In this document: positions 1,794-6,103 of the stretch, in pieces
Layout: every line of letters starts with the position of its first letter
Numbering within the stretch: the stretch's first letter is position 1
DNA from: Podarcis vaucheri
Lineage: Eukaryota
Assembly: GCA_965113315.1 (NCBI GenBank)
Contig: OZ220365.1
Strand: one strand, 5' to 3'
Length of the DNA stretch: 64,000 nt
Made by a program: the position numbers and the translations under genes
Notes under the pieces: generated by a model
Databases searched by the model: none
What the model was told of the DNA's origin: nothing
Seen by the model: the letters and a program-made list of their open reading frames with translations, nothing else

Positions 1794-1848
<55 letters not shown>
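1794..1848. repeat. (TA)n microsatellite, resuming at 2101-2120
   Basis: Direct reading. Confidence 0.95.
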
Positions 1849-1851
<3 letters not shown>

Positions 1852-2100
1852 GGTTTTGGTGTCTTCGGGTGTCTTCCCGTGTAAGAGTCGGGGTGTCTGT
1901 GCGACGTTTCGACGAGGTCTCACTCGTCATCTTCAGGCTGGTGCTTTCGGCTTCTTGTTAAGAAGCCGAAAGCACCAGCCTGAAGATGACGAGTGAGACC
2001 TCGTCGAAACGTCGCACAGACACCCCGACTCTTACACGGGAAGACACCCGAAGTCACCAAAACCTGCATTCCTGTACCCGTGAAAATCTACGAAAGCAAA
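1847..2100. mobile_element. Penelope-like element terminal fragment: inverted pseudo-LTR pair plus 31-nt tail, inserted in (TA)n
   Basis: Arms 1847-1956 and 1960-2069 are reverse complements with one mismatch; CpG-rich; hammerhead-like core in each arm; TA repeats on both sides. Confidence 0.7.
1980..2013 (+). ncRNA. Minimal type-I hammerhead-ribozyme-like motif (mirror copy on - strand at 1903-1936)
   Basis: CTGAAGA-T-GACGAG[TGAGAC]CTCGTC-GAAA-CGTC: CUGANGA box, 6-bp stem II, GAAA box; helix I and III support is weak. Confidence 0.55.
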
Positions 2101-2151
2101 TATATATATATATATATATATTTTTTCTTTGAACCAATTTGTTCTTTACAG

Positions 2152-2600: not shown

Positions 2601-2705
2601 GAACTGATGAGAGAACTTGATCAGAAGGAAGAAATTATCAAATCTGTTCAGGAAATAGCAGAACAATTGCTATTTGAAAACCACCCTGCAAGGCTAACTA
2701 TTGAG
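2601..2705 (+). CDS. DST: Dystonin exon ([35 protein letters not shown])
   Basis: aag|GAA ... GAG|gtagg; 105 bp. Confidence 0.95.
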
Positions 2706-3005
2706 GTAGGTTGTTAAACATAACTTAGGAATAGAAACAGAGTCTCTCAAGGCTCTTTTTATGGGCTGCTGAAACAGAATATAGACTTGTTTTCTGGGTG
2801 CAGTCTGTAGTCCCCATGCTTCATTTCCAGAAAATGTTCAGTAAAATAAGACTATTTGATTTCACAGTCAGGCTCTACATAGACATGTCATAAACCCACT
2901 GCCCCAATTGTACAACGGGGAGGGGGTTATAGCTTGGTTGGCTTTGCTCTTGTTTTTGATCATGTATTTTGTGCTTTTATATTGAAGGGTGGTATACAGT
3001 GCAAC

Positions 3006-3007
<2 letters not shown>

Positions 3008-3042
<35 letters not shown>
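3008..3042. repeat. (TAA)n microsatellite
   Basis: Direct reading. Confidence 0.95.
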
Positions 3043-3044
<2 letters not shown>

Positions 3045-3916
3045 GGAAAAATGAGAAATTGACAGAAACTGAAACAGACAGATTCATCAATCCCTACATG
3101 CATTTGTTGCAGTGTATTGCAGTTCACAAAAGCTTATGTCAGAACAAATGTGTTTATCTTTAAAGTGCAACAGCATACACTTAATTTTGACATGACATGA
3201 CAATGACATGAAATAAATGGGACCACAACAAAATGTAGCAGTTGTGGAGGGCTGCTGTTCCAAGGGCTGGCCAGCCATACATTCTTGCCAGTTCCAGTGT
3301 TCAGCCAGCCAACCATACCCTGTTGCAAGATACTCCATTTCTTTCCATTCCTTTCCTTCTCCTCCTTGGCCCCATCCCAGATTTCTGTTGTTAATGCTTT
3401 TGTCCATCAGACACTCAGCCTTAGACACTTTACTGAGAGCTATGTTACATCAGTTCCCATTAATATTCCAGTGAGGCTGAGTTTTGTAACCTGCGACAGG
3501 GCAGTGGTTCTGTGTTTTCATTTGACATGGAACTTCTGTTTCATTACATTGCTTCCATTTAAGGTGTGAAGTTCAGGCACTTGCTGTTGCTCATAAACTC
3601 CAGATATTGTTTGGACATTGAATTTATTTCAGACTGGCATCATGTCGTGTGCCTACAATGTGTGACTTGATTCTAGTCCAAAATGCATCTAACGTCCAAA
3701 CAACACCTGGAAATTTATGAGTGCTTCTGTTTTGGTTTTAAAATGCATGCTAACTACCACAGGTGCCTTCAGACTTCCAAATGTGATCACACGGTTGTCA
3801 GTTAGGAAACTAGGATGTGTACAAAGCAGATAGTCATGCAGGGTTTGTGCTCTGAAGCAATAAGGCTTTAATGCAAGAAGATAAGCTCTATGATATTTTC
3901 AGGCTATTAAGCAGTA

Positions 3917-4147
3917 CAGTGGTACCTCGGGTTACATACGCTTCAGGTTACATATACTGAAGGTTACAGACTCCACTAACCCAGAAATAGTGCTTCAGGT
4001 TAAGAACTTTGCTTCAGTATGAGAACAGAAACCGTGCTCCGGCGGCAGGAGGCCCCATTAGCTAAAGTGGTGCTTCAGGTTAAGAACAGTTTCAGGTTAA
4101 GTACAGACCTCCGGAACGAAATAAGTACTTAACCTGAGGTACCGCTG
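3917..4147. mobile_element. Tc1/mariner(pogo/Tigger)-type MITE, family A copy 1
   Basis: TIRs CAGTGGTACCTCGGGTTA / TAACCTGAGGTACCGCTG, TA on both flanks; internal TTCAGGTTAAG repeats; homologous copies at 48754 and 56919. Confidence 0.85.
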
Positions 4148-5112
4148 TACTGTTGGGGCTGATGCTGCAAGGGTTGTTTCTATGTAAATTAATACTAGAT
4201 ATATCCTATTGGTACCTCCTAAAAAGTTTGCATTTATAGACAAATTCAGACAGCATTCAGATGTCACAGTGCACCATCATTTATCTAGAGAAGGAACTAG
4301 CTGGAACAAATCTTGGACCTACACACTTCCTCTTCCACCTCTGTGGAGAGCTATGAGGAGATTGGAAACTTTCACTTTTGATTAACCACAATTTAGTCTG
4401 ATGTCTGAGCCCTAGACGGAAGTTAACTTTTAACTATGGTTTGATGACATAAGGTAGCTTGATGACTCCATGATTTGTGCTCGACTTGTTTCAAACAAGC
4501 CATGGGAAAGGTTAGCTCCAGGTGGAACGATAAGCTGCAAGTAATAAAAAAAAGAAGAGAAAGCTTTCAGAAACCTTCTTGCAGCTACAGCAGAGGTGGA
4601 GAGGTGAGGGGGGAGCGTGCAAGCTTTATTGTGGCTTGTTTTCATAATGCTAAAACAGATCAATTTCACTATCTGTAGGGTATTTAGCAAATTGAGTTGA
4701 AATACGTCTTCTAACAGAGAACAAGGCACCCACTGGTTTCCATGGGAGATGCTTGGGGAGAATTCTAAATCTAAAGTATTTAGAGCAGCCTCTGCTGGCC
4801 AACAGTATTACTGTTCTACCATAGCAGGGATAGAGCAAATACTGCATTCAAGAAATTCAAGTTATAAATAACAGTTATTCTAATAAGTAAATTGTTCAGA
4901 GAGTTTTATTGCTTTTTGTAGAGAAATGCACTTGATCTTTTCAGAGGCTGGTGTGATTTCTTTTCCTACTGTTATAACAAGTCGAAGGCATTTGAGTAGG
5001 AAAATTGGGCAGGGGGGGGGGCTTCAATTCCTCAAATCTCCCCCCTTCCTCATTTGAATTGCTTCTGTTGCACAGCAAAACATGACTTCTTTCCTCTGCC
5101 TGTATCCCTAAG

Positions 5113-5208
5113 GCCTACCGAGCTGCAATGCAAACACAGTGGAGCTGGATTTTGCAGCTTTGCCAATGTGTTGAACAGCATCTGAGAGAAAACACTGCAT
5201 ATTTTGAG
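5113..5208 (+). CDS. DST: Dystonin exon ([32 protein letters not shown])
   Basis: aag|GCC ... GAG|gtacg; 96 bp; plakin AMQTQWSW motif. Confidence 0.95.
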
Positions 5209-6103
5209 GTACGTAACACATGGGTATTATTGTAGAGTAACCACAGATTTAACTCTTAACAGCAGCAAGAAGAAAAGGATTTTTAAATGCTTTTTTATGC
5301 CAAATAATAGCATATTGACCCTCAGTAAATCTAAAGCTGAATTTTCACATTTCACAGGACTTCCTATTTTACGACTGCAGATGTCTGTAAAAAGTGCTGT
5401 TCTGCTTTTATTATGAGTTTTGTTGCATATTTTTTCAGAGTGGATGTGAACTAAAGGGCTTAAGCTACTTTTTTTCACACCAATATTTTCATGTGGTTCA
5501 AATGGGCCAAGAAATTGAGTAACCTTTCCCACTTGGTTTTAGAAGCAATTATTATTTTGCTGCATGTTCTGAATTCTCCATTCAAACAATACAAACCACA
5601 CCACAATCATCAATGAGGAAAAACATCTGTGAGTGGAGGGAGAGGGACAGGAAAGGAAAGAAGAAACTTACCCAGGTTGCACTGGAAAGAAAGTCCTTGT
5701 ACAGGAATTATTATTTTTCCCAACTGCAAAGAAGTAATGCATATACAGCTCATTAAAGGGGTACCCAGTTAACTTCATAAGTATCTAGTAGGCATTGCAG
5801 ACTGTTGTAAGCAGCATGTTTGAAGGCAGAGAGAGTTGTTAACTTTGCAGCCCAGTTGGTAAAGAGGACTGGTGGTTTTATCCCCTTTGGTGCTGGGATA
5901 CCCTGGGGTGAATGGGCTCATTTAGTTTTCTAACTGATTTTAGAAACTTACCGGTATGTCTCCTTCATCTAATAAGAAAGTATACCACACTCTTGGATTA
6001 TCAGCCTGGGCTTCAGACTGCTGTACTGACTACTCTCTTGAGGACAGAGCTTGCAATGGTGTATTTTTTAAATCAAAAGTGGTTGTTGTTTTTTTCATTT
6101 TAG

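Follow-up and report, generated by a model that had tools for sequence, protein, structure and literature searches.

A young head-to-head pair of Penelope/Poseidon ends in a dystonin intron of Podarcis vaucheri, and the likely origin of its inversion

The palindrome and its intron

The window analysed here is a 64,000-nucleotide stretch of Podarcis vaucheri DNA (contig OZ220365.1, assembly GCA_965113315.1). Near its start lies a 489-nt intron of dystonin (1663-2151, GT..AG), as had been predicted, which is spliced out in 111 RNA reads of a related species. The best match of a neighbouring exon is BPAG1/dystonin (2iak, E 5e-27), with plectin at E 7.7e-17. The intron carries the palindrome under study, which with its (TA)n flanks spans 1794-2121. 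Element coordinates (+/-) are counted from the ATG of the element, which is position 1986 of the window. The features are:

1663-2151, + strand: dystonin (DST/BPAG1) intron, 489 nt, flanked by exons 1534-1662 and 2152-2229
1794-1848, no strand: (TA)n tract, left flank, 27.5 copies; presumed target site
1847-1960, - strand: left arm, a truncated element end (-30 to +84) with the short, tail-less 3' end; includes GTT
1903-1936, - strand: putative left-arm counterpart of the hammerhead core, mirrored and placed by arm symmetry
1960-2100, + strand: right arm, a truncated element end (-26 to +115) with the long 3' end
1980-2013, + strand: candidate minimal hammerhead core, read from the sequence, predicted to cut after C2013 (+28)
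1986-2099, + strand: first 38 codons of the element ORF, interrupted by (TA)n; no protein expected
2070-2100, + strand: 31-nt Penelope "tail", running from one fixed 3' end (+84) to the other (+113/115)
2100-2121, no strand: (TA)n tract, right flank

The original prediction described a near-perfect palindrome with a one-sided tail between TA repeats, and all three parts are confirmed: i) the 110-bp arms (1847-1956 and 1960-2069) are reverse-complementary with a single mismatch, T1862 opposite T2054; ii) the 31-nt tail (2070-2100) is attached to the right arm only; and iii) (TA)n lies on both sides (1794-1848 and 2100-2121). The GTT at the center, previously taken for a 3-nt spacer, is element sequence of the left arm and not a spacer, because the left arm (-30 to +84) and the right arm (-26 to +115) overlap by 1 nt. 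When folded as RNA, the palindrome is stable far beyond chance (z = -38.5, with equal stability in none of 100 shuffles). T2054 occurs once in the genome, is absent from all four sequencing runs compared, and could be a change private to this locus or a base error. The insert has kept its CpGs in a CpG-poor background (observed/expected 1.12, against 0.26 in the window), and its claimed youth is also borne out. The palindrome is a young, ordinary insertion consisting of two 5'-truncated Penelope/Poseidon ends placed head to head.

Element identity

The predicted Penelope-like identity holds, the arm being the start of a reverse transcriptase (RT) plus GIY-YIG ORF and of its pLTR. At locus L031, the arm opens a 906-aa ORF (2674-5391) and is repeated after it, so that the 5' end of the ORF is present at both ORF ends in a unit of 2961 nt. 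The left arm of the window differs from the L031 pLTR at 1 place in 113 nt (-29 to +84), the polymorphic site +31. The ORF matches Pfam RVT_1 at residues 358-536 (E 6.7e-15) and, C-terminally, GIY-YIG (E 3e-4; 21.3 bits, slightly below the curated cut-off of 22.6). The single-ORF order of EN+ Penelope-like elements (PLEs), RT followed by a C-terminal GIY-YIG, is thus that of the parent family, of which the window copy keeps 38 codons only. The GIY-YIG core has an inner CxxC from residue 705 onward and histidines downstream, which is an EN+ PLE feature (PMC8557442). A tail bounded by ends at +84 and +113/115 is also present, with one of each in 31 of 37 arm pairs. The 120 residues preceding the GIY motif of the L031 ORF contain no CX2-5CxxC linker, which speaks against the Neptune clade. 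Together, the RT, the GIY-YIG with inner CxxC and the missing linker point to the Penelope/Poseidon clade by the sequence features given in PMC8557442. A PDB search at E<=1 returned no PLE structure; the matches were prokaryotic RTs only.

The candidate hammerhead consists of CUGAAGA, an extra U, a 6-bp helix II, GAAA and the palindromic ACGU. As read from the sequence, it shares with the minimal hammerhead described in PMC4209133 the extra base after A9, the G10.1-C11.1 pair and the palindromic helix III. Helix I is only 2 bp; helix II folds in prediction, and the ATG of the element sits at its base. An Rfam search of the window sequence gave no hammerhead match, and read ends do not pile up at the predicted cut in the sequencing runs compared with the window. 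The PAc ribozyme of the anole needs protein (PMC11167929). Upstream, a TATA-like TATTTATA at -71 (L031 2603-2612) can be read as a TATA box from either strand; for rotifer Penelope, a bidirectional promoter has been suggested (PMC3846280). A CAG at -33 to -31, by the end of the left arm, was considered as a splice acceptor (cf. Drosophila Penelope, PMC4209133) and rejected, since -30 is not a hotspot of arm ends.

Copy number and insertion sites

A 29-mer of the arm has 10,829 exact matches in the genome (control, 0). A search of the same genome with 1957-2100, the check proposed with the original prediction, gave 73 matches from 37 scored candidates, mostly 97-100% identical. The main sample comprised the first 40 loci on contig C1 in the 29-mer listing, picked by position only. 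Arms were counted if they were at least 95% identical and reached the pLTR end, giving 103 arms. Their 3' ends fall at +83/84 in 50 and at +113/115 in 46; 4 continue into the ORF, and 3 fall short by a few bases.

Targeting of TA microsatellites, another predicted property, is borne out by the (TA)n that directly adjoins 89 of the 103 arms. Genome-wide, exact +84-(TA)n junctions number 5,311, and long-end-(TA)n junctions 3,142 on the forward strand alone, to which that count was limited because the reverse-strand count was doubled. (TA)n is presumably the target, and any target duplication is likewise presumed. The (TA)n left on both sides of each insertion means that these sites may attract further insertions. 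Stacked insertions, tail to tail in a single (TA)n tract, are seen in L046, L055, L072 and L022.

Head-to-head pairs number 37 and occur in 32 of the 40 loci; they are the usual insertion form of this Penelope family here. Genome-wide, 395 palindromes have an inner gap of 30 nt or less and 189 are exact zero-loop palindromes at -42; tight palindromes occupy at least 584 loci. The exact junction of the window recurs at one other locus, on contig C28. The same +84-(TA)n end, with a few fixed differences, was found in three other organisms (runs X3, X7 and X23); the family therefore predates those species or has spread among them. An older subfamily, ~92% identical to L031, lies head to head at L037 4823-7100 with young copies nested around it.

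Structure of the arm pairs

The two arms of a pair usually differ in their 3' ends. Among the 37 pairs, 31 are short+long, 4 long+long and 2 short+short; the short+long excess has p 6e-6 over 36 pairs, L059 being dropped because one of its arms runs into the ORF. In a second set, drawn from 28 distinct best-hit loci, 25 of 27 pairs are short+long. The 6 of 37 pairs that deviate from this pattern count against double priming.

In sequence, the paired arms are nearly identical, differing at 15 of 10,348 positions against 0.96% between loci. At polymorphic site +31, none of 60 pairs is discordant (21.9 expected; 0 of 20000 shuffles as low), and one pair has the rare T in common. At site -46, 1 of 20 pairs is discordant against 9.8 expected. 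Other arm pairs within the same loci differ in 40 of 298 and 30 of 129 site comparisons (67 and 31 expected); neighbours are thus at most partly alike. Against the same-template reading, 6 of 64 pairs (L013, L016, L019, L053, L057 and L060) are discordant at one or more polymorphic sites. The shared alleles are compatible with one RNA, two RNAs of one source copy, or later gene conversion.

The 5' ends are less regular. In the 31 short+long pairs, by values entered by hand, the short arm reaches further in 16, the long arm in 7, and the two are equal in 8; taken by itself, a 16:7 split falls short of significance (two-sided p 0.09). Inner junctions range from +62 to beyond -2600. The arms of 14 of 37 pairs end within 10 nt of each other, against 4.5 in shuffles. 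Many pairs stop far apart (-1054 and -2920 in L037, for example), so the two cDNAs would not be tightly coupled. At the junctions, 24 of 37 pairs overlap, 22 of them by 1-4 nt; the overlap in the window is 1 nt. The interval -47 to -37, ~29 nt after the TATA-like box, holds the 5' ends of 27 of the 103 arms, against 14 in the 100 nt upstream. An apparent hotspot at -26 was a query bias; the unbiased sample places it at -47 to -37.

Junction fillers of 15-46 nt occur in L046 (457-504, 795-842), L007, L009 and L054, and several are short repeats of nearby element sequence. Such repeat-built fillers are expected of polymerase theta end joining. In L046 the identical palindrome with its filler is present twice in tandem.

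Origin of the inversion

The family identity, the copy number, the two fixed 3' ends, the (TA)n flanks, the one short and one long end per pair, the shared alleles and the short junction overlaps are observations that we regard as practically certain. The interpretation that best accommodates them, and which we think probable, is a young Penelope/Poseidon insertion in which both ends of the cut (TA)n primed reverse transcription on one template. Double priming on one template is suggested by the short+long rule, the shared alleles, the 16 pairs in which the short arm leads, the 3' end of each arm facing its own flank, as if each flank had primed a cDNA, and the in vitro cutting and extension of both strands with two start sites.

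In this mechanism, the protein of the element would cut both (TA)n strands. One 3' end would prime at +84 and the other at +113/115, either on a single RNA or on two transcripts of one source copy. After stopping early, the two cDNAs would be linked at their ends through a short microhomology (1 nt in the window), and each joined cDNA would then template the other. Taken jointly, the both-strand cut, the priming at the two sites, the early stop, the microhomology joining and the mutual templating are reasonably likely. Many copies would be as short as this one if copying ran off the RNA 5' end near -42; that transcripts start there is a weaker suggestion, a guess.

An unlikely alternative has the same element invert by fold-back, one strand folding over and copying itself. 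PMC3846280 proposed this for an antisense template; here the endonuclease would subsequently cut the two ends back to +84 and +113/115. Fold-back would account for the shared alleles, the coincident 5' ends (14 of 37 pairs) and the 189 exact zero-loop palindromes. A copy cannot, however, hold what its template lacks, and the tail and the additional 5' sequence of a self-copying cDNA would have to be on one and the same arm. In the window and in 16 of 31 pairs they are split between the two arms. The plain form therefore cannot give these pairs, and fold-back ends would need later cutting. Moreover, the published RT starts on sense RNA already explain both ends (PMC11167929).

It is improbable that each arm was primed separately, on unrelated RNAs of the family, and that gene conversion equalised the two later. 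Palindrome arms can gene-convert each other, and a few pairs do differ at shared sites; yet concordance is near-complete even in kilobase arms (0 of 2041 nt in L039 and 0 of 1442 in L069) of a family ~1% diverged, and the short and long end of each pair would be left unexplained. An assembly fold-back artefact or the terminal inverted repeats (TIRs) of a DNA transposon (MITE) are highly improbable. The site is not spanned by any contig from three DNA-type runs (X1, X3 and X7), whose contigs end in the (TA)n tracts or do not cover the flanks and thus showed no empty site, and its unique mismatch could be a base error. Against these readings, the ends match the two fixed positions of the family, the paired arms face outward towards (TA)n, and contigs of run X1 contain junctions of this kind too. 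A MITE, moreover, requires fixed TIRs, a fixed inner length and no RT, whereas here the inner junctions vary and an RT ORF begins in the arm.

Double priming on one template may, more tentatively, describe Penelope integration as such: double target-primed reverse transcription on one RNA at fixed sites 29-31 nt apart, with the leading cDNA starting at +84 and the trailing one at +113/115, followed by head-to-head joining. If so, the tail would be the spacing of the two RT sites and the inversion a normal product. The shortest palindromes would be run-off copies of the transcript 5' end near -42, and one family would have produced hundreds of tight hairpins, and probably thousands of longer ones, that feed ADAR.

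Relation to known Penelope systems

The closest comparison is PAc, the Poseidon element of Anolis carolinensis (Frangieh et al. 2024, PMC11167929), the likeness being one of features. Its ORF also starts at hammerhead stem II, the hammerhead cut lies 26 nt after the ATG (28 here), and RT starts 111-118 nt into the ORF (ends at +113/115 here). The PAc protein, a predicted dimer, cuts and extends both strands in vitro, and two internal start sites bound its tail; a tail between two start sites and AT-rich targets are both found here. PAc prefers ATT in vitro, in contrast to the strict (TA)n flanks of this family (89 of 103 arms). Inverted pairs, the usual form here, are not treated in the accessible text of that paper.

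In Adineta vaga (Arkhipova et al. 2013, PMC3846280), Penelope likewise has head-to-head inverted pLTRs with a palindrome at the junction, an optional 31-bp tail on one arm, and a TATA-like box and the first codons in the pLTR; unlike here, its copy number is low. Self-priming on an antisense template was proposed there, whereas the counts here favor two primed cDNAs. For EN+ PLEs in general (Craig et al. 2021, PMC8557442), an inverted 5'-truncated copy, microsatellite targets and a tail of 30-40 bp, often at one end only, are described, as here (31 nt). Inverted pLTRs with a one-sided tail are thus already in print (PMC3846280, PMC8557442), and the locus is ordinary. Craig et al. tie the microsatellite bias of Neptune and Naiad to the CX2-5CxxC linker (PMC8557442); the present element lacks it and is nevertheless found in (TA)n, so strict (TA)n targeting occurs without the linker thought responsible.

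In L1 twin priming, a single RNA is primed from both ends of the target, and the two cDNAs join at microhomology. The double priming and joining proposed here are the same; in L1 the parts are different RNA stretches, whereas here the same stretch, copied from two starts 29-31 nt apart, gives a palindrome. Searches of the mostly open-access PLE literature listed no account of inverted pairs made from a single template, which points only weakly to novelty. The origin of inverted Penelope ends is named as an open question in PMC8557442 and PMC3846280. The window locus itself is of little weight, and wider interest attaches only to the counts made across the family: in a young family with ~10,000 ends and shared alleles, such counts can separate models of inversion.

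Family RNA and the host gene

RNA of the family was followed in run X23, from another species, of which ~12 in 100 was read; the strand was fixed by exon reads. In family reads on the arms, 19 of 29 changed places are A>G or T>C. Seventeen of these 19 occur almost exclusively on the strand that reads A>G in RNA (at 1915, 13 of 27 against 0 of 28 reads; at 2032, 12 of 26 against 0 of 50); the remaining two reflect a single fixed difference between species. The 17 places reduce to 14 family sites once mirror positions are merged, six of which rest on reads from only 2 start places. With moderate confidence, the family RNA is edited in an A-to-I pattern, the reads being from other loci of another species and not from the window intron. 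The family is a large source of long intronic dsRNA.

In the pre-mRNA of dystonin, base-pairing between the arms would give a 110-bp stem, a substrate for ADAR, with the hammerhead core hidden inside it. The predicted distance of about 80 nt to the 3' splice site is right for the paired stem, which ends 82 nt away; the insert itself ends 51 nt away. The likeliest effect on dystonin is none, because the stem lies within the intron and leaves both splice sites unbroken. A hairpin selected as a regulator of dystonin splicing, or as a source of small RNA, is very improbable: its favorable points are the position of the stem and the editing-like pattern in family RNA of the related species, and against it this hairpin is one among at least 584 tight palindromes, contig C28 carries the identical junction, the copy is young, and the Rfam miRNA matches are generic hairpin matches under the gathering score. 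A miRNA precursor was rejected on that ground (best score 69 bits against a gathering score of 74), the match being pairing-only and identical on both strands.

Two further inverted repeats lie in the window. A short element at 3912-4150, with inverted ends resembling these and repeats of 16-17 nt inside, looks like a common MITE; sequence like it adjoins family insertions in L005 and L011. A weaker inverted repeat, with 48-nt arms at 75%, lies at 3599-3711.
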